From Gemmatimonadota bacterium (GTDB taxonomy: Bacteria; JBHIER01; G020348925), in contig CP070758.1 in assembly GCA_020348925.1 (NCBI GenBank), forward strand, positions 2,619,688 through 2,683,687: a stretch of DNA of 64,000 nt, given 5' to 3'. The notes below the pieces were generated by a model. That model saw only the letters and a program-made list of their open reading frames with translations. It was not told the DNA's origin and did no database searches. This document shows positions 7,134-56,206 of the stretch, in pieces. Position numbers and translations under genes: made by a program. How positions within the stretch are numbered: the first letter of the stretch is position 1; every line of letters starts with the position of its first letter.

Positions 7134-7922
7134 GTGAGTCTTAAAATGTATTTGACGATTGCACTGGGGATCTGTGTAACGGTCTTCACAGGATCGCTCT
7201 GTGCCAGTACAGAGCAACCATCCCAAGATCTCAAAGCAGCTCAAATATTTACAGGTGATGCGCTTTCCTTTGAAGCAGGAACGCATATTGAGGTTCCGAT
7301 AGTCCTGACTACAACGAAGTCCTTGGCTGGTATTCAGATATCCTTAGAATACAATGGTGATATTATGACCCCGGGAGAACCTGTCCCAACCGAGCGGACG
7401 GCCGGTATGTCCGTCGCTCATAATATTACCGATGATAAGATTCTTATTTTACTGTATGATGTCACAGGGAAAACCATCAGCCCAGGAAACGATCCGGTTT
7501 TAACGCTCCCCTTTTCTATTGCTCAAAATGCGGAAGGTCGCAGTGAGTTGGTCTTTCGCGAAGTAATCCTCGCCGATGAAGGAGCAAACGCAGTACCTGC
7601 CGAAGTGAAGTCAACACCGATCACTTTTGAAAAAGCCCTTCCCACCGAATATGGTCTTGTTCAAAACTATCCCAATCCGTTCAATCCGGAGACGGTCATT
7701 GCCTATCAGCTCCCTGAAGAATCTCATGTAACTCTCACTGTTTATAACGTGTTGGGTCAAGAGATTCGCAGACTGACGGACGAACGACAGTCCGGGGGAT
7801 TTTATCAAATTGTCTGGGACGGGAAAAATGAATTCGGCAAAGATGTTTCGACGGGAGTATACTTTTACCGACTGCAGGCGGGTGGCTTCAAGAGTGTAAA
7901 AAAGATGATGATGCTCAAATAG
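7134..7922 (+). CDS. Secreted single-cohesin protein with FlgD/T9SS-A-like CTD
   Basis: Signal peptide; cohesin-like pattern EVPIVL..LAGIQISLEYN..PTERT..ISPG..VLTLPF; CTD QNYPNPFNP..WDG..GVYFY..KKMMMLK. Confidence 0.8.
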   Translation: MSLKMYLTIALGICVTVFTGSLCASTEQPSQDLKAAQIFTGDALSFEAGTHIEVPIVLTTTKSLAGIQISLEYNGDIMTPGEPVPTERTAGMSVAHNITDDKILILLYDVTGKTISPGNDPVLTLPFSIAQNAEGRSELVFREVILADEGANAVPAEVKSTPITFEKALPTEYGLVQNYPNPFNPETVIAYQLPEESHVTLTVYNVLGQEIRRLTDERQSGGFYQIVWDGKNEFGKDVSTGVYFYRLQAGGFKSVKKMMMLK

Positions 7923-8117
7923 GAATTGAGGGCATGTCCGATGTAAGGAAATCAATAAATAGGATTATGTTTAATCTTATCGACGTTCATTGAACAGGAG
8001 GGGGTGATCTTTCGAAAAAGAGTTTCCGTAGAAGGGTGTTCAAAAACCCATCATTTTCATTGTTGTACCGTCCGTTGTTTGAAAAGTTGAATCCTGTTTA
8101 GTTAAAGGAGGTTATAA

Positions 8118-9341
8118 ATGCGTGTGAAGACTTTTATTGTTTTAACGGTCTTTGTAGTGATGAGTGCAGTCTGCGGGTACGCGCAGGAAGCTATTCTGGC
8201 AATCGATGGTGAACCGTGTGCGGATGCTGGGGCGACTGGAATCGAGGTCAGCATCACTTTGGACAATAGCGCTATCGAAGACGATGTGGCCGGATTTCAG
8301 TTTGATCTCAATTTTGACAAGAGCGCTCTAACAAAAACCGATGTCGCTAAGACACCACGCTCAGAAGATCTTGCTATTTTTTCGACGAGCGACACCGATG
8401 ACGGCATTCGAGTTGTTGCGACGGGTATCGGGCAAACCATTTCAGATGTTACGGGAGCTATAGCTATTGTTACTTTCGATGTGGATGCCGGAGCTTCCGG
8501 TGATTACGACCTCACCTTTGTCAATCCGAAAGTGGCCAATCCTGCAGCCCAGGCCCTTCCACTCTCGGTTGTCGATGGCGTGTTTTCCGTGCCCTGTGGT
8601 GGGGGAGGAGGGGATGAGGCCATATTAGCGGTTGAGGACGCTTGCGGAGACCCGGGGCAAACAGGGGTTGAGGTGAACATCACCCTGGATAACAGCGCTC
8701 TGACTGAGGATGTCGCTGGCTTTCAATTTGATCTCTACTTCGACAAAACAGTGTTGGCCGTGAGCGATATTGTCAAGACAGACCGTACAGAAGATCTCAC
8801 TATTTTTAGTTTCAGCGAGACGGATGATGGATTGAGGTTGGTGGCGACGGGAATAGGTACCATCGTTTCAGGGACAACAGGTGCAATTGCCAAAGCTATC
8901 TTTGATGTGGATGCCGGGGCCGCTGTGGGCGAATATGATCTGACGTTCGTCAATGCGAAAGTTGCCGATCCAGGAGCGAATCCATTGCCAGTTGTTGTTG
9001 TCGATGGGACTTTTTTCGTGCCGTGTGATGCGGTTGAGCTCGTTCGTGAGGACATTGTGCCCACGAACTTTCACTTGACGCAGAACTATCCCAATCCCTT
9101 CAACCCAACAACAAGCTTCGATCTCTCCGTACCGACATCGGAGATGGTTAACGCGGTGATTTACAACGTCATGGGTCAGAAGGTGAGGACGTTGGTCAGC
9201 GAAGAACTTCCTGCTGGCTATTATACACTCACTTGGGATGGGTTGAGCGAACTGGGCATTCCTGTGACAAGCGGTGTTTATTTCTGCCAAGTGAAAGCCG
9301 GAACATTCGGCAGCTCTATCAAGATGCTGTTGTTGAAGTGA
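8118..9341 (+). CDS. Secreted two-cohesin mini-scaffoldin with CTD
   Basis: Signal peptide; two similar modules (EV.ITLDNSA...DVAGFQFDL.FDK...YDLTFVN.KVA.P...VVDG.F.VPC) joined by GGGGG; CTD. Confidence 0.85.
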   Translation: MRVKTFIVLTVFVVMSAVCGYAQEAILAIDGEPCADAGATGIEVSITLDNSAIEDDVAGFQFDLNFDKSALTKTDVAKTPRSEDLAIFSTSDTDDGIRVVATGIGQTISDVTGAIAIVTFDVDAGASGDYDLTFVNPKVANPAAQALPLSVVDGVFSVPCGGGGGDEAILAVEDACGDPGQTGVEVNITLDNSALTEDVAGFQFDLYFDKTVLAVSDIVKTDRTEDLTIFSFSETDDGLRLVATGIGTIVSGTTGAIAKAIFDVDAGAAVGEYDLTFVNAKVADPGANPLPVVVVDGTFFVPCDAVELVREDIVPTNFHLTQNYPNPFNPTTSFDLSVPTSEMVNAVIYNVMGQKVRTLVSEELPAGYYTLTWDGLSELGIPVTSGVYFCQVKAGTFGSSIKMLLLK

Positions 9342-9395
9342 TGTCCATTCGGGGACTTTCAAGTTGAGGCCAATCTCTTGGAATTCTAAGGAGAT

Positions 9396-9432
9396 AACCG
9401 TCGAGGCTTTCTCAATAGCCTCGACGGTTTTT
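9396..9432 (+). terminator. Rho-independent terminator or stabilising stem-loop
   Basis: 13-bp stem AACCGTCGAGGCT/AGCCTCGACGGTT followed by T-run. Confidence 0.8.
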
Positions 9433-9488
9433 GGCAAATAGAGATTTGCGTTGAAAGCAATGCTCTGTAAAAGTAAGGAATCATCGCG

Positions 9489-12400
9489 ATGAAAAGGTGG
9501 TATCTGTTCTTATTCTGTGTGGTTTTTGGGGTTGCAAGTATTCAAAACCTTTATGCCCAGGAGGCTACGTTGAGGATTCTGGATGCTTCCGGAAATCCGG
9601 GGAGTGAACGGAATCCTGTCTTTGTGAATCTCTCCAACGGTACCAGCGCCAGTGTCGTCCAATTTGCTCTAAATTTCGACGGAACCGTTTTAACCGTCGT
9701 TGATGTCCAACCCACTGAGCGCACCGAGCATATGGGAACCTTCTCGTGGGAAGTGCTTGATTCGAATGCTTTTGTCGTGTTCATTCAAGATCTTTCGGGT
9801 GAGGTGATCGATCCTGGGGTAGGACCAGTTGCCACTTGTTTTGTTGATGTCGCGGAAGGCGGGCTCGGGAAAGACCTGCTTCTTCAACTCTCAGGTGCAA
9901 GCCTCTTTGATCCATTCTCGAATCCTGTTTCGGTGAGAACTGTCGATGGTATTTTCAGGGTTACTGTTCCCGATATATCTCTCTCTGCCCAGACGCACAA
10001 TTACGGATTCGTCTTAATGGGACAATCCCAGGAATGGGAAGTCACTGTGTACAACGATGGAACGGGTTTGCTTACAATTTCCGATGTTCATTCCGACAAT
10101 TTTGAGTTCGTTGTAACATCTCCGCCCTTCCCTCAGGAAATAGCTCCCCTCGATAGTTTAGATATTCTTATTGTTTTTTCACCTTCCCTGGAGGGACCAC
10201 GATCGGCTTCAATATCATTATTTTCAAATGATCCCGATGAAGGTCTGCTATTTCTCTCCTTAACTGGCGGTGGAACTTCGGTCGATATCGATCTTTCTGA
10301 TTTGGAGCATGATTTTCAGGCTGTAAGAATAGGGACCACTTCCGACTGGTCCTTCACAATATTCAATTTGGGGATTGAACATATTACGGTATTCAATATC
10401 GTTTCAACCCACTCTGATTTTGAAATTACGCATCCCTCATTTCCTCAGAACGTATCACCGGCTGGGAGTTTAGAGGTGATCCTGCAATTCGCACCAACAT
10501 CGATGGGGAAATTAGAAGGTATGCTCACATTAACATGTGACGATCCAGATGAGGGAACAATTCTCTTAAATGTTGAGGGCATTGGACTTGCCCCAATTAT
10601 TCAACCGTCTGTTACGAATTATGATTTTGGGGATGTCGAGGTTGGTGCTTCGGAAGGGTGGTTACTTACGATTTCGAATGATGGAACAGCTGATCTGACG
10701 ATTGAAGCCCTCACTTCAAATAACACTGAATTTTCTGTTGCGTTTCCTGCATTCCCTCAAACTATTCCGCTGGGAGGAAATATTGAAGTTGTCGTTTCAT
10801 TTGCCCCATCAGACATAGGTGAGAGAACCGGAATCTTAACCATCACAAGTGATGATCCCTTCGATCCAACATTGAATTTAACCCTGAGTGGTGAAGGTGT
10901 TCCTTCAGCCATACTCACCATGGGAAACGGTTCGGGAGCTCCAGGGAGTGTGAGTATTCAAGTTCCTCTTTTGCTTACCAATCGGAGAGGGGTCGCTGCG
11001 TTGCGATGTATCCTCAGTTACGATGCATCAAAACTGGATGTTTCCAGCGTTTCGCCGACGAATCGAACCGCTCACATGGGAATTTTCAATTGGACCGAAC
11101 CTCTAGCCGGGAAGATTGTTCTTCTGATCGAAGATCTGACAGATCGCGTGGTTTCCCCGAGTACGGGTGCTGTCGCCAATTTCTTTTTTGATGTTGACAT
11201 TTCGGCTTTGCCTGCGGAAGAGCCGTTAATGCTTTCAAATGTGGCTTTGTATGATATCGATGAAGGAGACATTTTCACTGTCTCTGACGAACCCGGTTCT
11301 TTCACAATTATAGCTCCGGATATAGCGTTATCTGATACAGATTATGCGTTTGGGTCTGTGCTATTGGACGCTACAGCTTCATGGACATTGACCATATTCA
11401 ACGAAGGGACTATCGATCTTACTGTCACGGGAGTGACGACAACGAACACCGATTTCATGGTCGTTGCACCCTCTTTTCCCCAGACAGTCGAAGCTGGAGG
11501 AGATTTGGAGGTGGCCATCCGATTTACTCCCACTTCCCTTGGTCCTATTACGGGGGCCATTACGGTTGTAAGCAACGATAGTGATGAAGGTTTATTATCC
11601 GTAACTCTGTCGGGAACTGGGGTAACTCCTAATATTATACTGTCAGCGTACAGTCATCATTATAGTGAAGTCATATTGGGTACGTCCTCGTCATGGACCA
11701 TGAAAGTATTCAATACAGGAACAGCCGATCTTTCTATCACTCATGTTACTACTGATCAGGCTGACTTTCATGTAGCAAGTCCAATTTTTCCTCAAAGTGT
11801 GAAGCCGGCTGACAGTCTCACGGTCTCAGTAAACTTTACGCCTTCCGTTTTAGGAAATATATCGGGAACACTTACTGTATTCAATAATGATCCAGAGGAT
11901 GGAGAATTGTCTGTCGTTTTGATTGGCGTGGGCACTGCACCGGATATTAATGTTTCTGAAACAAGTCATGATTTTGGTGAAATCGTGGTGGGAGGGATGA
12001 GTAGTTGGATGTTACGAATATCAAATATCGGGTCAGCCGATTTAACCCTTCAAGACATCTCTTCAAATCGCGCTGACTTTAGTATTGTGGCTCTTTCCTT
12101 TCCCCAGATAGTACCACCGGGTGGATACCTTGATGTTATGATTTCATTTTCTCCCACTATTGAGGGTTTCATTTCAGGTGAGTTAGTCATCACATCCAAT
12201 GATGTTGATGAGGGTTCTTTCTTTATCCCAATGCAAGGGCGGGGAATTGCACCTGATATACACCTTTCGGCAACGAGTCAAAATTTTGGATCAGTGCTAC
12301 TGAATAAGAGTCGGTCATGGACGTTCTCCATTCATAATCTTGGAGTCGTGCTTTTAAGAGTAAACGAAGTGATTTCAGGCACCTCTGATTTTCATGTAAT

Positions 12401-14606
12401 CTCTCCCACGTTTCCACAAAATATTTTACCGGGTGATACTATTGAGGTAAATCTTATTTTTCAACCGGTTATGCTTGGTGAATTGATAGATACGATCCGG
12501 ATAGTGAGCAATGATCCAGATGAGAACATCTTAAACCTTCAGGTTCGAGGCACAGGTGTGGCTCCTCATATTGAACTCTCAGCAGAGGCCTATGATTTCG
12601 GTAATGTCGTGGTTGGGCGAACTGCAAGTTGGACATTGACAGTGAGGAACAGTGGGAGCTATGATCTTCATCTCAACCGCATTTATCTTGCGGATAGTAC
12701 GAACTTTCAAATACATGAAGTTTTACTCCCGATAACGATCACTCCTTCTGCAAGCTCAAATTTCACCCTCAATTTTAAACCCCTGAATCCAGGAATAAAG
12801 ACGGACGAAATCACAATTGAGAGTAATGATCTCGACAATCCAGTGGTTACATTTTCTCTTACAGGTCGGGGATCTGCTCCTCCTGCGTTGACTGTTCTCG
12901 ATAGGAGAGGCGCACTTGGGAGTTCAGATCGGTTGGTTCCACTTGAATTGTCCAATGAAATGGCGATTTCGAAGATTGTTTTTACTCTTCAGTATGATTC
13001 CGGGCGTTTGATCACGTCTGAAATTCAACCTACAGTGAGAACCGATCATATGGGTACATTTACGTGGCGTGAACAGAGTCCGGGTATTATTGGAGTAACC
13101 ATTGATGATGAAAACAAAATTGTAGAACCAGGATCAGGATGGGTTGTTGAATTCCTTTTTGACGTGAGAAGTGATGCCACATTGGGAGAAATTCCAATGA
13201 CTTTGACCAATGTCACACTTTATGATACTAACGGAGTAATTCTCCCCAAAAATCTCTTTCACGGTACTTTTGAAATAGTTGAAACGCTCGAGCAAGTGAC
13301 TATTGCTATTCCCCATAGGAGTAAACCTGCCGGTGACACCTTTCAAATTCCAGTAAAACTGTTGCAGGACATCACAGGATTAAATGTTTTGGCCATGGAA
13401 TTTGTCATTGTTTTTAATCCAGAACTTTTGACGGCTATTTCGGTTTCAGACGAGGGCACTTTAGCGGATGCTTGGCGTGGAACGCCAAATGCTGAATATT
13501 TAGCATTTACAGCCATAGAAGAGGATCGAATTATTGGAGTCATTGCGGCAAACTTTTCACTGTGGGGAGAAGGTACTTTTTTAAATATTACTTTCGAAGT
13601 TTCTGAGGATGCTCAGGCTGGTGAGAAGAGTCCACTTCATTTCTTAAATTCTAAGGTAAATGAAGGTGATCCTCCGGCAGAATTTATTGATGGGTGGTTT
13701 TCTGTCGAATCTGTACCGGACATTGATTTCTCGTTTCGAGAGCACGACTTTGGATCGGTGGAAATCGGTGAATCTCAAGATTGGCAATTGACCATCTACA
13801 ACGTTGGAACCGAGGATCTCGTTATTAGTGATATTGTTGTTACGATTTCCGACTTTACTCTGAGCGATATAACTGTGCCGCAAACGTTATCTCCAGATAG
13901 CCATCTTAATACCACGGTAGTTTTCAGTCCTCAAAGTCAAGGCCAAATAACAGGTGAGCTAAGAATTACAAGTAATGATACTGATGAACCCACAGCGTCT
14001 CTTTCGCTGCTGGGTGTGGGCACGCCTGGAGTCGATGTGCAATTAGCATACTTCTCTGGATACTGGACCGGGAGGGATGTTCTTCTGAAGTGGACATTCG
14101 CATCGTATGATGATGTGTTAGGTTTTCATGTTTATCGAAAAGGAGAAAATGAAATTGAATATTCTCGTCTAACGGCAGAACCGTTGATGTATGATGGGAA
14201 ATCTCTTTTCCGTGATATGGAAGTCCCGGGTTCGGGATTGTATTCCTATCGACTCGCAGCAGTTGACAATGAGGGTTTGGAAGAGTTATTGGGAACTGTT
14301 GCAGTGAAGGTGGGTGAAATAGGTAACTTATCATATTTTCTATCTCAAAATTTTCCTAACCCATTTAATCCTAAAACACGGATCGAATATACTCTCGAGA
14401 AAGCGGATCAGATTTCTCTTTCCATATACAATGTAATGGGTCAAAAAGTACGCAACTTGGTCTCTGCACGTCAAGGAGCGGGGCGATACACAGTTTTTTG
14501 GGATGGGACGAATGATAGTGGAGAAGCTGTTCCAAGCGGAGTTTATTTTTACATATTGGAAACTATGCATTTCCATGAAACGAGGTCGATGCTCCTCTTG
14601 CGTTAA
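9489..14606 (+). CDS. Large scaffoldin-like protein: 4 cohesin-like modules, 9 ASH/choice-of-anchor-D Ig repeats, FN3-like module, CTD
   Basis: Order Coh-ASHx3-Coh-ASHx5-Coh-Coh-ASH-FN3-CTD; ASH repeats P.I.LS...(H/Y)DFG.V..W...I.N.G...L...FPQ...F.P....SND.DE...L.G.G. Confidence 0.85.
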   Translation: MKRWYLFLFCVVFGVASIQNLYAQEATLRILDASGNPGSERNPVFVNLSNGTSASVVQFALNFDGTVLTVVDVQPTERTEHMGTFSWEVLDSNAFVVFIQDLSGEVIDPGVGPVATCFVDVAEGGLGKDLLLQLSGASLFDPFSNPVSVRTVDGIFRVTVPDISLSAQTHNYGFVLMGQSQEWEVTVYNDGTGLLTISDVHSDNFEFVVTSPPFPQEIAPLDSLDILIVFSPSLEGPRSASISLFSNDPDEGLLFLSLTGGGTSVDIDLSDLEHDFQAVRIGTTSDWSFTIFNLGIEHITVFNIVSTHSDFEITHPSFPQNVSPAGSLEVILQFAPTSMGKLEGMLTLTCDDPDEGTILLNVEGIGLAPIIQPSVTNYDFGDVEVGASEGWLLTISNDGTADLTIEALTSNNTEFSVAFPAFPQTIPLGGNIEVVVSFAPSDIGERTGILTITSDDPFDPTLNLTLSGEGVPSAILTMGNGSGAPGSVSIQVPLLLTNRRGVAALRCILSYDASKLDVSSVSPTNRTAHMGIFNWTEPLAGKIVLLIEDLTDRVVSPSTGAVANFFFDVDISALPAEEPLMLSNVALYDIDEGDIFTVSDEPGSFTIIAPDIALSDTDYAFGSVLLDATASWTLTIFNEGTIDLTVTGVTTTNTDFMVVAPSFPQTVEAGGDLEVAIRFTPTSLGPITGAITVVSNDSDEGLLSVTLSGTGVTPNIILSAYSHHYSEVILGTSSSWTMKVFNTGTADLSITHVTTDQADFHVASPIFPQSVKPADSLTVSVNFTPSVLGNISGTLTVFNNDPEDGELSVVLIGVGTAPDINVSETSHDFGEIVVGGMSSWMLRISNIGSADLTLQDISSNRADFSIVALSFPQIVPPGGYLDVMISFSPTIEGFISGELVITSNDVDEGSFFIPMQGRGIAPDIHLSATSQNFGSVLLNKSRSWTFSIHNLGVVLLRVNEVISGTSDFHVISPTFPQNILPGDTIEVNLIFQPVMLGELIDTIRIVSNDPDENILNLQVRGTGVAPHIELSAEAYDFGNVVVGRTASWTLTVRNSGSYDLHLNRIYLADSTNFQIHEVLLPITITPSASSNFTLNFKPLNPGIKTDEITIESNDLDNPVVTFSLTGRGSAPPALTVLDRRGALGSSDRLVPLELSNEMAISKIVFTLQYDSGRLITSEIQPTVRTDHMGTFTWREQSPGIIGVTIDDENKIVEPGSGWVVEFLFDVRSDATLGEIPMTLTNVTLYDTNGVILPKNLFHGTFEIVETLEQVTIAIPHRSKPAGDTFQIPVKLLQDITGLNVLAMEFVIVFNPELLTAISVSDEGTLADAWRGTPNAEYLAFTAIEEDRIIGVIAANFSLWGEGTFLNITFEVSEDAQAGEKSPLHFLNSKVNEGDPPAEFIDGWFSVESVPDIDFSFREHDFGSVEIGESQDWQLTIYNVGTEDLVISDIVVTISDFTLSDITVPQTLSPDSHLNTTVVFSPQSQGQITGELRITSNDTDEPTASLSLLGVGTPGVDVQLAYFSGYWTGRDVLLKWTFASYDDVLGFHVYRKGENEIEYSRLTAEPLMYDGKSLFRDMEVPGSGLYSYRLAAVDNEGLEELLGTVAVKVGEIGNLSYFLSQNFPNPFNPKTRIEYTLEKADQISLSIYNVMGQKVRNLVSARQGAGRYTVFWDGTNDSGEAVPSGVYFYILETMHFHETRSMLLLR

Positions 14607-14639
14607 TTTACTTTGAATAGACTAAAAAGGAGGTATCTT

Positions 14640-16079
14640 TTGCGGGACTGGAAGATCAAAATGTTCATGACGCGGCGTTTCTGGAGCATTTGCATGCTCA
14701 TCATGTGCTCAATGTGTTGTGGATGGGGGTGGCAGGATTCGAATGCTGATACAAGCGAATCAGTCGTTGATACTGGAAAAGTCCGTATCCCTAATGTTTG
14801 GGCTATGCCGGGGGATACAATTGAGTTGCCTATTATTATTTTGTATGATGTTACCGGATTAGATATTTTTTCGATCACGGGAGATTTAACATTTGATCCA
14901 TCTCTTATCTCCTTAACAGGAGACACCGTAATTACAGAAGGCACGCCGAGTGACAATGAAGTTTGGGCTTGGTTTTTCATATCAGCCATGGTTGATACCA
15001 ACACATTCCGCATGGTTTGGGCTGCCGTAGAATCTCTGGAGGGAAGTGGACCTCTTGTTTATGTGCAATTTCGCGTGTCACCAATGGCACAACTTGGTGA
15101 GGTCAGTCCTCTTTGGTTAGAATCTTGGAATTTTAATGAAGGAGATCCGGCAATTGAGGTTTTTGATGGGGTCTTTTCTGTTGGGCAACCTCCACGCATC
15201 GAGCTCTCAGAGACGATTCATGAATATGGAACCGTCGATATTGGTCAGAGTGCGGAGTGGATACTGCGCATTACGAATGTAGGAGATAATTTTCTTGATA
15301 TATATACTATGGAAACCGATAGTGTACAATTCGAAGTTCTTGAACCTTTTTTTCCTCAATCGATCAATGCTGGGAATACGATTGAAACAACCGTTACTTT
15401 TACACCAGACTCTAATGATTCTATTGAGGGTAATTTACGGCTAAGTTGTAATGATTTAGATAATCTAATCCTAAATATCCCCTTGGGGGGAATAGGGCGT
15501 GGGACACATGTGCAACTTTTATCTTTTACTGCTCAGTTTCATGATGATAAGATTTTCATAAACTGGATAACCTCTGAGGAAAGTTGTCATTTAGGATTTA
15601 TTCTCTACCGTAGCTGTTTTCCTGATAAAGATTTCAAACCAATCAATACTGAATTGATTGCTGGGGGTCCTTCGTATGTTTTTCTGGATGATTCTCCAAA
15701 GGGGGAAGGTATTCATTACTATAAACTTAGTTCTGTGGATGTGAACGGATATGAGGAAACCGTTGGTTTTACTTCAGTAAAAGTGTTTTCTATGACACCT
15801 ACAACTCATTCACTTCTTCAGAACTACCCAAATCCATTTAATCCTATTACTTACATTACGTTTGAAGCACCAAAAGAGGAGTATGTGACCTTAAGTGTTT
15901 ACAATTGTTTAGGGCAAGAGATTCGGAAGCTTTTTGAAGGTCATGCGGATTTGAATCATAATACTGTATCCTGGGATGGTTTGGATAGTAAAGGAAATAT
16001 TCTTCCGAGTGGAATCTACTTTTGTAGGCTTCAGTCTTCCATGGGCATTAGATCAATGCGAATGATGCTTTTACGATAG
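14640..16079 (+). CDS. Secreted cohesin + ASH + FN3-like + CTD protein
   Basis: TTG after AGGAGG (ORF call begins 14613); architecture mirrors the last four modules of the large scaffoldin (TGL..F.P.L..EGT..NEGDP..DG.FSV). Confidence 0.8.
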   Translation: MRDWKIKMFMTRRFWSICMLIMCSMCCGWGWQDSNADTSESVVDTGKVRIPNVWAMPGDTIELPIIILYDVTGLDIFSITGDLTFDPSLISLTGDTVITEGTPSDNEVWAWFFISAMVDTNTFRMVWAAVESLEGSGPLVYVQFRVSPMAQLGEVSPLWLESWNFNEGDPAIEVFDGVFSVGQPPRIELSETIHEYGTVDIGQSAEWILRITNVGDNFLDIYTMETDSVQFEVLEPFFPQSINAGNTIETTVTFTPDSNDSIEGNLRLSCNDLDNLILNIPLGGIGRGTHVQLLSFTAQFHDDKIFINWITSEESCHLGFILYRSCFPDKDFKPINTELIAGGPSYVFLDDSPKGEGIHYYKLSSVDVNGYEETVGFTSVKVFSMTPTTHSLLQNYPNPFNPITYITFEAPKEEYVTLSVYNCLGQEIRKLFEGHADLNHNTVSWDGLDSKGNILPSGIYFCRLQSSMGIRSMRMMLLR

Positions 16080-45567: not shown

Positions 45568-48255
45568 ATGCATAGAAAAATCATTGTTTTTATAGTACTT
45601 TCTCTTTTTATCATAGCCGGACTGAGTCAGGTCAGCTTCGCCCGTCGTCTTCCGGTTGTGAAACATACTCAGAACGTGAGCAAAGAGGTTCCTCAAGTGC
45701 CCTTTGTCACGGCGGAAGTGGAGACACTCTACGGTACCGTCTATTTTGAGGACGGTTTACCTGATGGTTGGGAGTTCGTCGACGGCAAGTGCGGATATCA
45801 CTGGCATGTCACGGACTTCGGTGCCTACGACAACCATTCCTACTGGTGCGGTGTGCACAGTGACACCTACAGCGGGTATTACAGCTACTGGTCCGACTGG
45901 CTGGATACCCGGGATCCGATTGCGATTCCCGGTGGTACCGGCAGCCTGAATCTGACGATTCTCCACAAGGTGTATACCGAGGACCCCACGGCTATGTATT
46001 GGGACGGTTCCGCAGTCTTTGTGCGAGTGGACGGTGGTCAGTGGGAGGTGGTACGGCCCACGAACAACACCGGTCATCCGGACGGTGATTTTACGGACTA
46101 CACGCGGCTGGACAGCCTCCGGGCCTGGGAATGCGTCGATATGGCCAACACCGTCTACGAGAGATTGGAAGGATTACCCGGTTGGGCCGGATTGGAGGAT
46201 AACTGGTTCACCTCCACCTTTGACCTGAGTGCTTACGCCGGCGCTTCCGAGATAGAACTTCGGTACGCCTTCGTCAGTGACTGGGGTTCGGACTCCTTCG
46301 ACGAGCCGGATCATTACGGTGGAAACTGGGTGGAGAGTATCGAATTGGTGGCCGATGGCAGCGTCATCTTCTTCACCGATGCCGAGGAAGACCCGCCGCT
46401 GATGGTGGCCAATGCACCGTGTCCGGGACACGAGATGAGCCTGGCCAATGGTGATGTGGCATTGAATCAGAAGTATCCGGGTTGGCCTGACGCGGAACAG
46501 ATGGATTGGCCCCCGGTCATCACCGAGCCCTACCCGCCTTCCGGTTGGACGCCCGGGGCGCAGTCTGTGCGATGCGCGGATGAGATGTATCTCAACTCCC
46601 AGGTTGTGACGGACTGGATCACTCTTCCGCCTGAGGGATATCCGCGGGTATCCTTTATGATCCTGGCGGATATGCCCGGTGGCGACTGGGAGAACGACGG
46701 TGACGTCGATGATTACTTCCACTTTTCATACGAGACCTCCGCTGAGCTTGGTGTCTGGCATGAAATCTTTTACAGCCAGGGCGGCGGTGGCGGCGACAAC
46801 GATTCCACCTGGGAGTACTGGTGGTGGGATCGGGATACCGGGTTGAAGATCCACGATCACAATGGGAATGATATCAGGTTCCGTTGGCGTCTCAATACCG
46901 ATGGGTATCAAATACCAGGTCCTGACCTGAGTGATCAGGAAGCTTGTCTGAGGGATCCTTGCATCGGTCAGGGGTGGTTCATGGATGAGTTCACTGTGGT
47001 CTGGCTGGGCACACCGGCCCTCGATTTGGAAGTGTCCTATATCGATATTCCCTGGGTTGTCGCGGTCAATCATACGTCACCGGTGACGGTGACCCTGTCG
47101 AACATCGGGGAGACGGATATTCCCAGCGCCGTCACTTTCATGTTCCTTCTGGATCCTGAGACCCTGGAACCTGTCCCCGGATTTGAGGCGGGCGTGCCCA
47201 TGGGACCTCCCTATCCCTTTGTCCCGGCACTGGATACGTTCTATTTTGAGTACGATTGGACGCCTGAAGAGATCGACACGGTTCGCTTCAGAGTGCAGTA
47301 CCTGATGGTGGACGAGATCATGGAAGACAACCAGCTCTTCAGCAGTGCCGTGGCCATTTACCCGCAATACCACGGGCAGCTGGGCAATACGATTCGCCAG
47401 ACCTCAGGCGGGTCGGGTGGTTCCATTCAGGGGGACGTCGGTCCTGCGATTCGGTTTACGGTTCCCGAAGAGTTCGAGCCCGATGGTGTGTGCATCGACG
47501 CCATACGGCCCGACTACATGGGGAATTTTGATACGCCCATTTGGGTCTATGTGAAGGATGCCGGACCTGATGATACCACCTGGGGCGCCGACCTGATCGA
47601 TCCCTTCTATATCGAACACCCCGACACACTTGGCACCAGAATCTACGTCGATCTGACCCAGCGTCCTGATTACGACAACCTGTGCGGAAGAACCGGTGAT
47701 TTCTGGGTCCACTTCAGGATGACGGACGAGACGAACTTCTCCTTTGTCACCAGGGGTGCGGACGAGGACAACTGCGTCGAGGATCATGAAGGGCGGGATT
47801 GGCTGTACTATCTCGGTACCATGGATCGTCAGACCGACTGTTGGGACGTTTTGGTGCGGATCAACTGGGCGCCTCCAGGTTGTATTGGGCTCAGGGGCGA
47901 TGCCAACGGCGACGGTAGTATCGACGTCCTCGACGTGCTGGCTGTGGTCAACCACATCCTGGGTATCACTCCTCTGACAGGTGATGCCGAGTGCCGCGGT
48001 GATTGCAACGGTGATGGTGGCATCGACGTCCTCGATGCGCTTGGCATCGTCAATTCCATTTTAGGCACGGGCGGTTGTATACCCGGAGCCTGCCGGACGG
48101 TCCTGACGCCCGAAGCCATGGAGGTAATGGAGTCGCTGCGGTCGTACCTGTCGGCCGAGGACTACGGCCGGTTCATGGCCCTGGTCAAGGGTGAGGTGGG
48201 TATGCCAGTGGAATACAGTCTGGCGCAGAACTACCCGAATCCCTTCAATCCGACC
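45568..48255 (+). CDS. Tandem paralog of the 41962 protein with dockerin; CTD truncated by gap
   Basis: Colinear similarity over the whole length; GDANGDGSIDVLD/GDCNGDGGIDVLD. Confidence 0.88.
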
Positions 48256-48355
48256 NNNNNNNNNNNNNNNNNNNNNNNNNNNNNNNNNNNNNNNNNNNNN
48301 NNNNNNNNNNNNNNNNNNNNNNNNNNNNNNNNNNNNNNNNNNNNNNNNNNNNNNN

Positions 48356-49112
48356 AAATCACTTGCCCGCTATCAAGGATGTGAGCGCTGCAGTCAAACT
48401 TGGTGATGTCAATGGTGACGGTGTCCTTGATGTCGTTATCGCCAATTATGGGGAACAGAGCGTTCTGTTCGTGGGGAACTCCGAACCAAAAGGAGGTCCT
48501 GTTGAACCGGAGGTGTTGCGCGGTGATGCGGACGGTGATGGCGAGATCGATGTGACGGATGTGCTGGTACTTGTGAACCACATTTTGGGTCACGTTCTTT
48601 TGGACGAGGAGACGATGGACCGTGCCGACTGCAATGATGACGGGCAGGTTGATATCTTGGACGCTATCGGTATTGTGAACGTCATCCTGGGGATGGGTGA
48701 GTGCAACCCAGGCGGTTCTAAGGCAGAAATCACGCCTGAGGTATTGAGGTTTTTTACATCTCTCGGAGACTTTCTTCCTGCCGAAGATGTCGACCGGTTC
48801 ATGGCGATTGTCAGCAGAAATGGTACCATTCCGATATGCTGCAGTCTCTCCCAAAACTACCCCAATCCTTTCAATCCCGAGACGCGGATCGATTTTCAAA
48901 TTCCCACTGCGGAAATGGTCAACGTGTCGATTTTCAATACGTTGGGACAGAGCGTGCGAACCTTGACACACAGTGCGCATGAGGCCGGAATGTATACGCT
49001 CCAATGGGACGGCTGTAACGATTGCGGTCGGAGACTTCCGAGCGGTGTGTATCTGTATCAATTGAAGGCGGGACATTACACAATTACGAAAAAAATGATG
49101 TTGATGAAATGA
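48356..49112 (+). CDS. 3' fragment: FG-GAP-like repeat + dockerin + linker + CTD
   Basis: LGDVNGDGVLDVVIAN; GDADGDGEIDVTD/ADCNDDGQVDILD; ITPE..EDVDRFMAIV; CTD. Confidence 0.85.
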
Positions 49113-51598: not shown

Positions 51599-52960
51599 AT
51601 GAAGATCAAGGGTTTGTGGGTAGTTCTTTTGGTGGCTGTTCCAATGTGTGGGGCTCACGCGGAGTTGGCATTGGACGTCGCCTTTCCACATCTGTCTATC
51701 AATCGACCTGTCGATCTCCAAAATGCGGGTGACGGAAGTGACAGGATTTTTGTCGTCGAGCAGGCGGGAAGAATTCATGTCTTCGAGAATTCTCAGGACG
51801 TCCAGTCAACAGACATTTTCCTGGATATTCAGAATCGAGTCAACAGGTCAGGGAACGAGGAGGGTCTTTTGGGACTTGCCTTTCATCCCGACTATGAGCA
51901 TAATGGCTATTTCTACGTCGATTACACGGCTTCAAATCCCCGTCGCACGGTGATTGCCCGCTACACTGTCTCCGGTACGGATCCGGATGTGGCCGATGTT
52001 AATAGCGAGATCGTTCTGTTAGAAATCGAACAGCCCTTCAGCAATCACAACGGCGGTCAGATATCCTTCGGACCCGACGGCTATCTGTACATATCCGTTG
52101 GTGACGGTGGTGCGGCTGGTGATCCTCAGGGTAACGGTCAGAACCTTCAAACCTTACTCGGAGCAATTCTTCGGATAGACGTGGACAATCCCGATATAGG
52201 ATTCAATTACAGTATACCCAGTGACAATCCTTTTGCACATAATCAATTTGGCTATGCCGAGGAAATTTATGCTTACGGTCTCCGAAATCCCTGGCGCTTC
52301 TCCTTCGATTCTGAAACCGGCTGGTTGTGGGCGGCTGACGTTGGTCAAAACACCATCGAGGAAATCGATATCATAGAGAAGGGGAAGAACTACGGCTGGG
52401 ATATAATGGAAGGAAGCGCATGTTTTGAACCACCTTCAAATTGTGATACAACTGGCCTTACCTTTCCCATCTGGGAATACGATCACAGTCTTGGACAGTC
52501 CATAACCGGAGGGTTCGTGTATCGCGGGACCAGCACACCCCAGTTGACAGGGAAATATCTGTACGCAGATTATGTCACAGGTCGGATCTGGTCATTACAG
52601 TATGATGGGCAAAATCCTCCCTCCAACACCGAGCTCTTCGATACGGATCTCAATATCTCCTCCTTTGGCGTGGATGAGGATAATGAGCTTTACTTCTGCG
52701 CCTTTGATGGTAGTATCTATAAAATTTCCTCCTCGTCATGCATGTCCAAAGGTGACGCCAACGGTGATTGTGCCTTCGATGTTCTTGATGCACTTATGGT
52801 AGTAAATGTTATTTTGGATGCTGTAGATCCCACACCAGACCAATTCTGGTCAGCCGATTGCAACGGACCGGAGGGGAATTGCGACGGCGATGGTCAGGTC
52901 GATGTTTTGGATGCGCTCAAAATTGTTAATCTGATTTTAGGCTTGGCTGAGTGTCCGTAG
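51599..52960 (+). CDS. PQQ-dependent sugar dehydrogenase (GSDH family) with C-terminal dockerin, no CTD
   Basis: EEGLLGLAFHP, NHNGG, FGPDGYLY, GDGG, GLRNPWR, DVGQ, NYGW, SITGG; GDANGDCAFDVLD..DGDGQVDVLD. Confidence 0.92.
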   Translation: MKIKGLWVVLLVAVPMCGAHAELALDVAFPHLSINRPVDLQNAGDGSDRIFVVEQAGRIHVFENSQDVQSTDIFLDIQNRVNRSGNEEGLLGLAFHPDYEHNGYFYVDYTASNPRRTVIARYTVSGTDPDVADVNSEIVLLEIEQPFSNHNGGQISFGPDGYLYISVGDGGAAGDPQGNGQNLQTLLGAILRIDVDNPDIGFNYSIPSDNPFAHNQFGYAEEIYAYGLRNPWRFSFDSETGWLWAADVGQNTIEEIDIIEKGKNYGWDIMEGSACFEPPSNCDTTGLTFPIWEYDHSLGQSITGGFVYRGTSTPQLTGKYLYADYVTGRIWSLQYDGQNPPSNTELFDTDLNISSFGVDEDNELYFCAFDGSIYKISSSSCMSKGDANGDCAFDVLDALMVVNVILDAVDPTPDQFWSADCNGPEGNCDGDGQVDVLDALKIVNLILGLAECP

Positions 52961-53234
52961 GAGTTTGAGTAATAAAGTGCCGACACCTTTTGATCTCTGA
53001 ATTATGCATTAAATCTCTTTGATGTTAGGCAAATATGACGCTTTCAACAGATTAAAATGATTCGGATTTTCAACTCAACTTGTAATGATCGGGCCTTCTG
53101 AACAAAGGGAGAGGAGTATTCCCCGAAAGATCGGGAAATCCTGAGAAGAGGTTAAATGGAGAGGAAAAGGAGATCGTCCTGAGAGCAAAGGAGTGACCGT
53201 TGAGATTGATATAATGCTGTCTAAGGAGGAAAAT

Positions 53235-53945
53235 ATGAGAAGTATACCAAGTATCACGCTGGTAATAATAATTACAGGATTTCTGCTTTTTTCAATTGCG
53301 ATCCAGGACATTCAAGCCGAGGTTGGTGTGGGTGATCAAGCCCCGGAGTTTACACTGACCGATCTCGACGGGAACACCGTTTCCCTGTCCGATTTTACCG
53401 GTCAGGTCGTCTTTCTCAACTTTTTGGGTTATGGTTGAGGGTTCTGTCGGGCGGTGGCACCGTCCATCGAACAGAACGTCTGGCGAGCTTATCAAAACAG
53501 GGAGTTTCAAGCCATAGGTATTGATCTGTGGAATGGTTCGATTCAACAGGTGAGATCGCAATATCAACAACCGTACAATATTACATATCCAATTTTGATC
53601 AACGGTAGTCTGTTGGGTGAAACATATGGTGTTTCTCAGGACTATTATTTTATCGTTGACAAGGGAGGAATTGTCCAGTATCGATCCACCGGCGGCTTGG
53701 GTCAGCGTTATGATGAGGATACCGTTACTGACATCATTGAGGGACTGCTTGATGATTGCAAGAAAGCTGATGTTGACCTGAACGGTGAGATAGACGTTCT
53801 GGACATTCTTCTGGCGGTCAATTTCATCCTCGAACAGACCGATCCGAATTCCACTCAATTTTGTGCGGCGGACTTCAACGATGACGGCAATATCGATATT
53901 CTCGATCTCTTGGGTATTGTTGGAGAAATTCTTGAAGGTCTGTAA
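53235..53945 (+). CDS. Putative secreted selenoprotein: AhpC/TSA-TlpA redoxin with UxxC motif + dockerin; in-frame TGA 53436-53438
   Basis: RBS AAGGAGG, signal peptide, VGDQAPEFTLTDLDG..VVFLNFLGYG*GFC; same-frame continuation to ADVDLNGEIDVLD/ADFNDDGNIDILD. Confidence 0.85.
53441..53477 (+). promoter_or_regulatory. Candidate bacterial SECIS element
   Basis: Lower stem GTTCTGT/ACAGAAC, upper stem GGGCGGT-[GGC]-ACCGTCC; loop starts after 17 nt following the TGA. Confidence 0.7.
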
Positions 53946-54069: not shown

Positions 54070-54636
54070 TTGATGAATCAGTCTTTTCGAATGTGGAGGA
54101 ACTCACTCGTGACCGGTAGAAAAACAGTACTATTTCTCCTCTCTCTCCTCTTATTGGGTTGTGTATCTGCTTCATACGGTGATACTGAAAAAGCGCCCGA
54201 TTTTAATCTGCTCACTATTGAGGGGGAAAAGGTGAAGTTGAAGGATTTACTGGGAAAAGGTCCCATCTTGATCGACTTTTGGGCCACCTGGTGCAAGCCG
54301 TGTATAAAGTATTTACCCAAGTTACAAGATTTGTACAAGGAATATGGGGAGAAAGGTTTCATGGTTTTGGCCATCAACGAGGACGGACCCCGGAACCTTT
54401 CCAAGGTGAAACCTTTTGTCAATTCCTTGGGACTTCAGTTTCCGATTCTTTTGGATAAGAACTCGCAGGTTCTGCGTCGCTTCCGGGGTTTCGGCATACC
54501 TATATCCGTACTCGTCAATCCGGAGGGTGAGATTGTTCGCGTACATCGGGGTTACAGGCCTGGTGATGAAAAAATGTGGGTCGAAGAGATTGAGAAGCAT
54601 TTGATCGTAAAGGAGCCCAAGGCCCAAATCCAGTAA
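54070..54636 (+). CDS. TlpA-family thiol-disulfide oxidoreductase
   Basis: APDF, IDFWATWCKPC, GIP; N-terminal signal; start uncertain. Confidence 0.92.
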   Translation: MMNQSFRMWRNSLVTGRKTVLFLLSLLLLGCVSASYGDTEKAPDFNLLTIEGEKVKLKDLLGKGPILIDFWATWCKPCIKYLPKLQDLYKEYGEKGFMVLAINEDGPRNLSKVKPFVNSLGLQFPILLDKNSQVLRRFRGFGIPISVLVNPEGEIVRVHRGYRPGDEKMWVEEIEKHLIVKEPKAQIQ

Positions 54637-54646
54637 GGTATTCTTT

Positions 54647-56206
54647 TTGAGAAGTACACTCCGTTCAATTAAGTTTATCGCATTAACCTGGATATTTCTG
54701 TTATTGAGTTGGCGTGGAGCGCTCGGTCAATTGGCTGTGTCCAACTTAGCGGAGTATCAATTAGGAAACCTGCCCCACACAGATCCTCCAACCCTCACTA
54801 CCCTTTATGATCAACTCAATGTCGATTATTATTACCAAAATATCCTTCTCGGTTTGAGGTTGGAATCTTTTCGGGCTTCGGAATTGGATCGCAAATTCTT
54901 CGAGGTCACCCAGAAATATATGGAGGCACAAACGGATCATCTTTCGTTAAGAATAGGCAACTTTTATGCCATACTGGGCAGGGGTATTGTGCTGAGGGCT
55001 TTTGAGTTGCCCGGAGTGGTTCTTGAAGATCAGGTCTACAGAAGGAGGTACAGCTTCTCTCGGGATTTAGAGGGAGTGTTGTTGAAGGGAATGTGGCGAA
55101 AAAGTGAATTCACGCTCCTGCGGGGTGAGCCATTGGACAGCAGTCTTCCACCGGGTGTGGAGAACCTGGAAAGAAGACAGAGACTGGTTGAGGGAGGGGA
55201 GCTGCGACTGAGGCCATGGAATTGGCTTACTCTCGGTGGCACCTATGTGAGACTGAATAAAAACGAAGGCCATCAGGAGGTGGCTTCCGCCTTCTGGGGC
55301 GGTTCCCTTCGATCGCTGGTGGAAATCTTGAAGGTGAAAGACATGGACCTTGACTTCTACGGTGAATATGCCCAGGTTCAGGGGGAGCTGAGCTCATTCT
55401 TGAGTCTTGAAGCAGACCAGCCTCATGCTTTGTATCTCTCTTTCAACTTTCTGTTCAGGAACCTCGGTCTGAGCATAGAATACAAAGACTATCAATCCTT
55501 CGACTTGGGCATCAACGACCCACCCTATTTGGTCAAAGAACATAATTTGACGCTCTTGAATCGTTCAACTCACATTCTTTTGCCTCAAAATGAGCGAGGC
55601 TACCAAATCGAAGGCAATTACAAGATAAGCAGTTATGCAAATGCGGTCTTCAACGTGAGCCGCGCCGTCAATGATCTCCTCGGTAGAGAAACGAAATTTG
55701 AGGAAAGATACGGGGAGATTTTGATGAATTTCAAACCGAATGTGTCTACTACGCTCTTTTATGATCATGGGAAAGACGAATTTGATTTCATTAAAGATAG
55801 AGATACATGGGGAAGCACCGTGGAATGGCAACCGGATTATGCCTACGGTTTGAAATTGGATTTTCAATGTCAGAGAGTGACACGCTCTTTCACTTCGGAT
55901 AAAGAAGAGGTTTTTCGGAATCATTTTCTCTCACTCTCGTTCTCAAAATCGCCGCAGGTCATATTCTCTCTTATCGGGGAAAAATCCACCGATCCTTTTG
56001 AGACTGACGATAAGGAGACTGTTGATATTCTTGAGGATGATCCGGAATATTGGCTTGGTGTAAACGTCAATTACCAGATCAGCGTGGAGCATGAGCTCAA
56101 TCTCTTCTACGGTGACCGCAGGGGCGGTCCCGCATGCAATGCAGGTACATGTTATGAGGTCTTGCCCTTTGAGGGATTAGAGATGAGGTTGGTAAGTCGT
56201 TTTTGA
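54647..56206 (+). CDS. DUF6029-like outer-membrane beta-barrel protein
   Basis: Signal peptide; GNFY..GRG..LR, EYKDY, NDPP..KEH, RRGGPACNAGTCY..PFEG; terminal Phe. Confidence 0.75.
   Translation: MRSTLRSIKFIALTWIFLLLSWRGALGQLAVSNLAEYQLGNLPHTDPPTLTTLYDQLNVDYYYQNILLGLRLESFRASELDRKFFEVTQKYMEAQTDHLSLRIGNFYAILGRGIVLRAFELPGVVLEDQVYRRRYSFSRDLEGVLLKGMWRKSEFTLLRGEPLDSSLPPGVENLERRQRLVEGGELRLRPWNWLTLGGTYVRLNKNEGHQEVASAFWGGSLRSLVEILKVKDMDLDFYGEYAQVQGELSSFLSLEADQPHALYLSFNFLFRNLGLSIEYKDYQSFDLGINDPPYLVKEHNLTLLNRSTHILLPQNERGYQIEGNYKISSYANAVFNVSRAVNDLLGRETKFEERYGEILMNFKPNVSTTLFYDHGKDEFDFIKDRDTWGSTVEWQPDYAYGLKLDFQCQRVTRSFTSDKEEVFRNHFLSLSFSKSPQVIFSLIGEKSTDPFETDDKETVDILEDDPEYWLGVNVNYQISVEHELNLFYGDRRGGPACNAGTCYEVLPFEGLEMRLVSRF

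Follow-up and report, generated by a model that had tools for sequence, protein, structure and literature searches.

A TGA-interrupted redoxin–dockerin gene in a Gemmatimonadota genome and its reading as a mis-annotated selenoprotein gene

Two open reading frames (ORFs) that meet at an in-frame TGA, in the middle of what looks like a thioredoxin-type active site, raise the question of whether they are a broken gene, two genes or a single gene for a selenoprotein, and where a redoxin that ends in a dockerin would act. We analysed this locus in a stretch of 64,000 nucleotides (nt) from a Gemmatimonadota genome (contig CP070758.1, positions 2,619,688 to 2,683,687; hereafter the window, whose own numbering is used). 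On sequence grounds, the two ‘broken’ frames at 53235–53945 are one gene, a genuine predicted selenoprotein gene that has been mis-annotated. The fuller reading, to which we give a probability of about 0.8, is that the gene encodes an exported, reductase-like UxxC selenoprotein (U, selenocysteine) which has a TlpA-like protein and a DUF6029 protein as partners and is tethered by its dockerin to cohesin proteins exported by the type IX secretion system (T9SS).

The TGA codon, its hairpin and the selenocysteine machinery

With TGA translated as U, the forward strand at 53235–53945 reads as one gene of 236 codons followed by a TAA stop (53943–53945), with a single in-frame TGA (Table 1). The original prediction, made from the sequence of the window, held that gene callers split the gene, and public protein collections do contain two separate entries: a 67-amino-acid protein identical to residues 1–67 (P0030) and a 163-amino-acid protein which starts MAPSIEQ (P0002). 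Two related NCBI entries start at the same place as the 163-amino-acid protein and bear the title ‘dockerin type I domain-containing protein’. Read with U, the motif is NFLGYG-U-GF-C, and the alignment sets U68 against the first Cys of FWATW-C-KP-C in the next gene, a TlpA-like gene, and against Cys in the homologues G064, P0005–7 and P0019; translation and alignment with CxxC homologues thus place the TGA at the first Cys of a thioredoxin CxxC, as had been predicted. Cys71 is the sole active-site residue which is invariant in all 14 aligned rows. The N-terminus is basic with a long hydrophobic stretch ending in IQA/EV, and the predicted signal peptide is probable, as judged by eye, by a modelled N-terminal helix (residues 6–19) and by equivalent N-termini in homologues.

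Concerning the closest relatives, the only other genome of the same family (G001) contains three homologous copies (55–70% identity), all of them with a single TGA at the same codon. These read U-IS-C, U-AF-C and U-GP-C; a dockerin is found in each, and the N-terminus is signal-like where the contig permits. All other relatives offered for comparison belong to the ‘same domain’ only, so the lineage is sparsely sampled. Outside the family, two copies in G064 come closest (43% and 38% identity); neither has a stop, and the extracted copy reads FFGYG-C-PY-C. Both sides of the Cys/TGA pairing which the original prediction sought among homologues are therefore present, TGA in the G001 copies and Cys in G064. 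TGA is also found at the same position in eight more distant genes (in G204, G003, G023, G046, G273, G192 and G016, and a second gene of the window’s own genome, G000). The redoxin domain, searched against 301 genomes, gave a match at E ≤1e-14 in 31 of them; the TGA-bearing matches are in G001, G003, G046, G192, G204 and G273. A library of 1.84 billion proteins contained 1261 matches at E ≤1e-10. Based on 225 aligned domain stretches (the best 150 of these 1261 matches plus the query’s own row, with U written as C), 202 have CxxC, so Cys is usual at the U68 position in relatives. When the portion that follows the UxxC was used as a query against metagenomes, nine loci were obtained, six with TGA at the first-Cys position and three with Cys; among the six are two pairs of identical or near-identical loci. 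A separate scan of genome contigs gave only four related loci, distant or dockerin-only. As to the codon itself, contigs from the runs X2, X3 and X5 (sediment metagenomes, two studies) cover 53436–53438 with 0 differences; X4 gave no contig, and no single run’s contig covers the whole gene. Where a sequencing error would have left TGC or TGT in other reads, the contigs of these three runs show TGA.

The second gene of G000 (C1 ~1519470–1521188, reverse strand; locus L022:226–1944) would encode another dockerin-tagged selenoredoxin, of 573 amino acids, with a signal sequence and the site HIWHSG-U-PT-C. Its middle of ~350 residues has no Pfam match and Dockerin_1 is at 510–563; a GGC-loop hairpin lies 20 nt after its UGA, and its G003 homologues end in a T9SS tail instead.

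The two-tier hairpin with a GGC loop, which had been described downstream of the TGA, is present and both stems were located. It is a stem-loop directly 3' of the UGA whose apical loop contains G, a bacterial selenoprotein trait, and the GGC loop begins 20 nt after the U of UGA; the bSECIS model of the bacterial selenocysteine insertion sequence (SECIS) places the loop ~16–37 nt from the UGA. The inner stem is 100% paired in the four close copies but almost invariant. Across 12 aligned TGA genes, 90.5% of cells pair vs 64.1% in shuffles, and changes on both sides are seen in six of the seven pairs (21 cells); neither value is reached by any of 500 shuffles, and the count keeps the G016 row despite its poor fit. 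Sliding the partner by one to three columns lowers the pairing to 38–52%. Stem variants in the TGA homologues include AUGCGGA/UCCGCAU, GUGUGGA/UCCACAC and GACCAGA/UCUGGU, while the triloop, with G first, keeps its distance of 20 nt from the U. Outside the 12-gene count, the six metagenome loci with TGA also have a hairpin, with a GGC, GGU or GUC triloop 22–24 nt downstream.

The original prediction also depended on a selenocysteine machinery, and all its parts that were sought are found in the genome: selA (520.8 bits), the SelB wing (76.3 bits), selD (372 bits) and tRNA-Sec (65.8 bits; anticodon TCA by ARAGORN). selD, selB and selA lie next to one another, ~100 kb upstream of the window. selD (G000:C1:2516704–2517624, reverse strand) has one in-frame TGA, so the selenophosphate synthetase of the organism would itself be a selenoprotein. 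TGA is the commonest stop of long ORFs, ending 939 of 2231 naive ORFs of at least 300 residues; the code is therefore standard, and a genome-wide reassignment of TGA was rejected. A Cys-type redoxin homologue (33% identity, in a 374-residue frame; G000:C1:404399–404800, L003) lies ~600 bp upstream of the tRNA-Sec gene (405376–405470, L016).

The redoxin domain and its family

Pfam AhpC-TSA matches residues 32–149 with 61.8 bits (cut-off 26) and Redoxin matches with 52.9 bits (cut-off 26.6). With PF00578 above its gathering score and the site U-G-F-C, the protein fits the peroxiredoxin-like (Prx-like) UxxC selenoproteins. That UxxC selenoproteins of the AhpC/TSA type are known had been stated at the outset, and the Prx-like PF00578 UxxC family is described in both PMC2398784 and PMC13188914. 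‘Prx-like 1’ selenoproteins appear in Zhang & Gladyshev 2008 (PMC2398784), and Prx-like thiol:disulfide oxidoreductase selenoproteins (PF00578, UxxC/UxxU) are ‘predicted with high confidence’ in a 2026 review (PMC13188914); as far as the available parts of these two papers go, the family is known from sequence only. The protein studied here shares with this family the PF00578 score, the UxxC site, the SECIS-type hairpin right after the UGA and the far larger number of Cys homologues than selenocysteine forms. It differs in that its clade has no cis-proline loop, and that it belongs to a subfamily with the signature (F/L)G(Y/H/N)x-C/U-xx-C, whose usual tail is a T9SS sorting domain.

In the AlphaFold model, residues 31–170 mostly have a predicted local distance difference test (pLDDT) above 90, and U68 lies just ahead of helix 69–86, as in CxxC thioredoxin folds. 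The top Foldseek matches in the PDB are ResA-type oxidoreductases (1su9, 3c73, 4nmu; template modelling score by target 0.85–0.90, root-mean-square deviation 1.7–1.9 Å), which identifies a thioredoxin fold with a ResA-type insertion. Among the best PDB matches by sequence or fold are 2ls5, a ‘putative protein disulfide isomerase’ from Bacteroides, and Etrx2, a surface thioredoxin of the pneumococcus; the Bcp/AhpE peroxiredoxins are close behind the ResA-type proteins.

Proline is missing at the cis-proline position in 171 of the 225 aligned domain stretches. At this site (window 53634–53651) most Cys members have T-T-Y-D-R and the clade of the window gene has S-Q-D-Y-Y; the conserved Arg of T-T-Y-D-R resembles the peroxiredoxin catalytic Arg but is out of register. 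By eye, the peroxiredoxin PxxxTxxC motif and catalytic Arg are absent: the site reads FLGYGUGFC, and Y, not R, precedes the FIVD strand. In peroxiredoxin rows (PGAFTGVC), T is at the U68 position and Cys at C71. Two assignments were rejected, ResA/TlpA proper (family hidden Markov models (HMMs) below cut-off, no cis-proline) and AhpC/BCP peroxiredoxin proper (no PxxxTxxC, peroxiredoxin Cys aligned with C71). The ResA-type fold, the CxxC-like geometry and the fit to the Prx-like UxxC family lead us to read the protein as a selenol/thiol oxidoreductase, most likely a reductase and possibly with a peroxidase-like role.

Dockerin, cohesins and the gene neighbourhood

The C-terminal dockerin of the original prediction is a type I dockerin in Pfam (Dockerin_1, PF00404, residues 178–226; 35.3 bits, cut-off 22.9), with two Ca-binding repeats by eye. 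We estimated the repertoire of the 5.04-Mb genome with HMMs which were built from hits and iterated on naive ORFs of at least 60 residues; the figures are approximate. The census gave ~295 dockerin ORFs, 105 cohesin ORFs (178 modules) and 251 ORFs with a T9SS tail, and a Pfam search of the genome gave at least 73 cohesin matches over cut-off. SprA is present. The T9SS tail is found on 79 of the 105 cohesin ORFs. There are 191 dockerin ORFs without a T9SS tail; in 158 of these the dockerin is at most 25 residues from the C-terminus, as in the window gene.

Candidate docking partners are encoded in the window itself (7134–16079, Table 1), in a scaffoldin-like cluster which lies upstream of the selenoprotein gene at a distance of 37 kb; as naive ORFs its members have 262, 407, 1705 and 488 residues. 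In G001, a cohesin gene with a T9SS tail lies two genes upstream of one UxxC–dockerin copy. On that contig (L055, C387, 333–2327), the cohesin and T9SS-tail protein (437 amino acids) and a protein with a heavy-metal-associated (HMA) domain precede the copy; the best match of the cohesin protein in G000 is C1:736985–739039 (52% identity). A T9SS tail accompanies this catalytic domain in 9 of 25 scanned library representatives (of the 150 listed, mostly the top ones), in G064 and, by eye, in L094–L097, so the dockerin occupies the slot of a surface-sorting signal. In the metagenome loci L089–L093 the redoxin domain ends in an EF-hand/dockerin-like pair, and P0126 scores weakly as an EF-hand. Based on these sequences, docking on an extracytoplasmic scaffold via a cohesin is plausible.

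Other dockerin proteins are found near the gene, on the same strand. The upstream neighbour (51599–52960) has a GSDH (glucose/sorbosone dehydrogenase) domain and a C-terminal dockerin but no T9SS tail, a redox enzyme with the same kind of anchor. Further upstream, a 938-residue dockerin protein with an InhA-like MAM domain (45568–48384) is overlapped at its end by a 249-residue ORF (48363–49112) with a dockerin and a T9SS tail; they may be one frameshifted gene or two genes.

Downstream of the redoxin gene are the TlpA-like gene, whose start the ORF lister places at 54070, and the DUF6029 gene. A CxxGxC near the DUF6029 C-terminus is invariant in five of five aligned proteins. The order UxxC–dockerin, TlpA-like, DUF6029 is the same on contig C364 of G001, and a TlpA-like gene is directly upstream of DUF6029 in G064, G003 and G204. 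In G064 the barrel is followed by the Cys homologue, which ends in a T9SS tail, whereas in the locus of the window gene the redoxin lies upstream. The locus has an adjacent TlpA-like gene, a DUF6029 protein with the invariant CxxGxC and a predicted exported redoxin with a targeting tail. Linkage of the redoxin to the TlpA-like/DUF6029 pair is seen only in G000, G001 and G064; in G003, G023, G204 and G192, the TGA redoxin matched by the query is on a different contig from DUF6029, so the linkage is not universal. Two CcdA-type genes are found elsewhere in the genome and could supply electrons. In the one paper that the literature search found on DUF6029 (PMC9603273), as far as it was available, the protein has been likened to Wzi-type polysaccharide-export barrels, not to redox proteins. 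In G064 the whole cassette occurs twice, with identical DUF6029 scores, and a di-haem oxidoreductase gene (putative peroxidase, DHOR; 8170–9459 of L086, G064:C1:2124000–2136000) follows the TlpA-like/DUF6029/Cys-redoxin–T9SS cassette.

Table 1. Features of the redoxin–dockerin locus and of related genes in the window
Feature	Position	Strand	Basis or remark
Four consecutive genes with one to four cohesin-like modules each (eight in total) and a T9SS sorting domain	7134..16079	+	Candidate docking partners
Shine-Dalgarno-like AAGGAGG	53223..53229	+	5 nt upstream of ATG 53235; read from sequence
Whole gene, predicted secreted UxxC redoxin with dockerin	53235..53945	+	Translation; Pfam; one frame with one TGA in the genome search
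Probable Sec-type signal peptide, residues 1–28 (MRS, hydrophobic run, IQA/EV)	53235..53318	+	By eye
Redoxin domain, thioredoxin fold (Pfam AhpC-TSA, residues 32–149; model confident ~31–170)	53328..53681	+	
TGA, putative selenocysteine codon 68, first position of UxxC	53436..53438	+	Comparative
SECIS-like hairpin	53441..53477	+	Outer stem 53441–47/53471–77; inner 7-bp stem 53449–55/53459–65; GGC loop 53456–58
TGT, Cys71, resolving Cys of UxxC	53445..53447	+	Alignment of 14 rows
Type I dockerin, residues 178–226	53766..53912	+	Pfam, own HMM census; two Ca-loop repeats DVDLNGEIDVLD and DFNDDGNIDILD by eye
TlpA/ResA-like CxxC (WCKPC) thioredoxin-fold lipoprotein	54109..54636	+	Likely GTG start after GGAGG 54095–99; lipobox LLLGC
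DUF6029 protein, probable outer-membrane beta-barrel, ending RLVSRF	54647..56206	+	Begins 10 nt past the TlpA-like stop
C-N-A-G-T-C cysteine pair (C497, C502) of the DUF6029 barrel	56135..56152	+	Alignment

Proposed function, alternatives and relation to known systems

In the function that we infer for the gene, the UGA would be decoded as selenocysteine by SelB and tRNA-Sec under the direction of the hairpin, which starts 5 nt downstream and whose role rests on the comparative evidence. A Sec-type signal peptide would carry the protein across the inner membrane and would be cleaved. The ResA/TlpA-like domain would have the active site U68-G-F-C71, with a selenolate in place of the nucleophilic thiol, and would act as a thiol/selenol:disulfide oxidoreductase, presumably as a reductase, working with the DUF6029 barrel and with the TlpA-like lipoprotein reductase as its probable electron supply. 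The dockerin would bind one of the many cohesin modules on T9SS-exported proteins and so tether the enzyme at the cell surface.

Several observations weigh against this interpretation, in whole or in part. No NCBIfam model reaches its cut-off: the ResA subfamily NF002854 scores 70.8 vs 170, TlpA NF047696 25.2 vs 230 and WAxxUGC 18.6 vs 300. The cis-proline loop is replaced by SQDYYF in six of six clade members, where it aligns with the xIPxxV loops of TlpA-type rows, and the chemistry may therefore differ from that of ResA/TlpA. The G001 assembly has a completeness of 87% and a contamination of 7%, and the three copies in it are on contigs of 3.5–5.8 kb, so some of them may be strain variants and not paralogues. 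As for the hairpin, the fold of 53430–53500 alone has an ordinary energy (z −0.99, a value matched or bettered by 34 of 200 shuffles), and for this reason the comparative analysis was relied on; covariation in the four close copies is not significant (one compensatory pair, reached by 137 of 500 shuffles), and there is overlap between the stem and the codons of the conserved peptide A-V-A-P-S. In the monomer model the dockerin has a low confidence (pLDDT 43–59). In complex prediction, the dockerin (residues 170–236) with the cohesin at window 7242–7634, one of the 178 modules, scored 0.44 vs 0.01 for the best of three controls, a result weakly in favour of docking: among solved complexes 116 of 157 attain this mark, as do 2 of the 215 mismatched pairs, whereas at a score of 0.60 or less it is attained by only 18 of the 157 and by both of those mismatches. 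Contacts agree between the runs at 100%, and the partner pLDDT is at least 81; since cohesin–dockerin complexes have already been solved, the score may reflect likeness only. Finally, the protein has no T9SS tail, and in a diderm a plain Sec substrate would stop in the periplasm.

The last point is the basis of a different view of its location, which we consider rather less probable than surface display but worth serious thought: a real selenoprotein which stays in the periplasm and works there with TlpA, its dockerin-like module binding a cohesin before or without export, or serving as a calcium-binding tail. It agrees with the presence of a signal peptide and no T9SS C-terminal domain, with the periplasmic location of TlpA-type partners and with the 158 ORFs which likewise have a C-terminal dockerin and no T9SS tail, and so no known outer-membrane route; it accords poorly with the T9SS tails on the catalytic domain in many lineages (the 9 of 25 representatives, G064 and L094–L097) and with the predominance of T9SS cargo among the cohesin ORFs (79 of 105). 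Docking would take place in the periplasm, and the enzyme might then be co-exported with its cohesin-bearing cargo; if not, the enzyme is a periplasmic one. Concerning the chemistry, a peroxiredoxin-like or glutathione-peroxidase-like enzyme, whose selenolate attacks peroxide instead of reducing a disulfide, seems unlikely. AhpC/TSA is the best Pfam family, the cis-proline of disulfide oxidoreductases is missing, Bcp and AhpE are close structural matches, the G064 cassette is followed by a di-haem peroxidase-like gene, and Y-D-R is conserved near the lost proline in most Cys relatives; but the clade of the window gene has Y and not R at that position, PxxxTxxC is absent, the peroxiredoxin rows P0009–P0011 (TxxC) align their Cys with C71 and not with U68, and the top matches by sequence and fold are ResA/TlpA-type.

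The selenocysteine reading of the codon itself has weaker competitors. The UGA might be read through as near-cognate Trp or Cys, or might be a true stop with a restart that gives two products, as the two called ORFs and a possible GTG start at 53454 for the second would suggest; we regard this as very improbable, because such a split would cut the thioredoxin fold at its active site, because TGA and never another stop is kept at the Cys-equivalent position in distant homologues together with a covarying hairpin, and because the full selenocysteine machinery is present. That the gene is a pseudogene, or that TGC or TGT was misread in sequencing or assembly, has nothing in its favour except the stop codon and was rejected as having hardly any chance: the contigs of three other runs are identical across the codon, and the TGA, flanked by open frame on either side, recurs in all three related copies and in numerous distant homologues. 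A more ambitious version of the surface reading is improbable in our judgement. In it the selenoredoxin would be the outermost member of a relay from CcdA to the TlpA-like protein, to the CxxGxC of DUF6029 and to the cohesin-docked selenoenzyme, by which reducing power would move from the cytoplasm to the cell surface; the enzyme would reach the surface by hitch-hiking, its dockerin binding cohesin-bearing T9SS cargo in the periplasm and leaving with it, as would the ~158 tail-less dockerin proteins.

Two groups of known systems are close to the one proposed here, for an exported, dockerin-tethered reductase. With the ResA/TlpA/CcmG reductases and Etrx1/2 (PDB 1st9, 4nmu, 4hqz), the protein shares the fold, a CxxC-type site where helix 1 begins and a predicted extracytoplasmic location, and CcdA-type membrane electron donors, as in the ResA/TlpA/CcmG systems, are found in its genome. 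It differs from them in having selenocysteine for Cys, a score below the ResA cut-off, no cis-proline, and predicted anchoring by a dockerin and not by a lipid or a transmembrane helix. As in clostridial cellulosomes, a secreted enzyme ends in a Dockerin_1 with two 12-residue Ca-loop repeats, and cohesins are numerous on anchoring proteins. In contrast to cellulosomes, the host is a diderm with SprA and ~251 T9SS-tail ORFs, its cohesins are on T9SS cargo and not on S-layer-homology or sortase anchors, and the predicted cargo is a redox selenoenzyme and not a glycoside hydrolase; the pairing here is a predicted one. A literature search, with most supplements outside its scope, found no published dockerin-bearing selenoprotein, and a link of a dockerin-anchored redoxin to the TlpA/DUF6029 pair was not found in print. 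The terms ‘dockerin’ and ‘signal peptide’ do not occur in the available parts of two 2026 overviews, PMC13188914 and PMC13326102, nor does ‘signal peptide’ in that of PMC2398784.

The enzyme family is thus known, and the dockerin mounting is a new architecture of that family, in an unusually large cohesin–dockerin/T9SS repertoire. A systematic annotation error is corrected, as this gene and its relatives have been filed as a truncated ‘dockerin type I domain-containing protein’, and the selenoprotein family gains a predicted extracytoplasmic, module-anchored form. The enzyme is also tied to an unstudied, widely conserved TlpA-like/DUF6029 pair, which offers a place to ask how diderms sustain redox enzymes outside the inner membrane. 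The census suggests a cohesin–dockerin display system built on type IX secretion, which is relevant to surface-display engineering and to sediment anaerobes. If the hitch-hiking proposal is true, cohesin–dockerin pairing would serve a diderm to export and display an entire secretome, selenium chemistry included.

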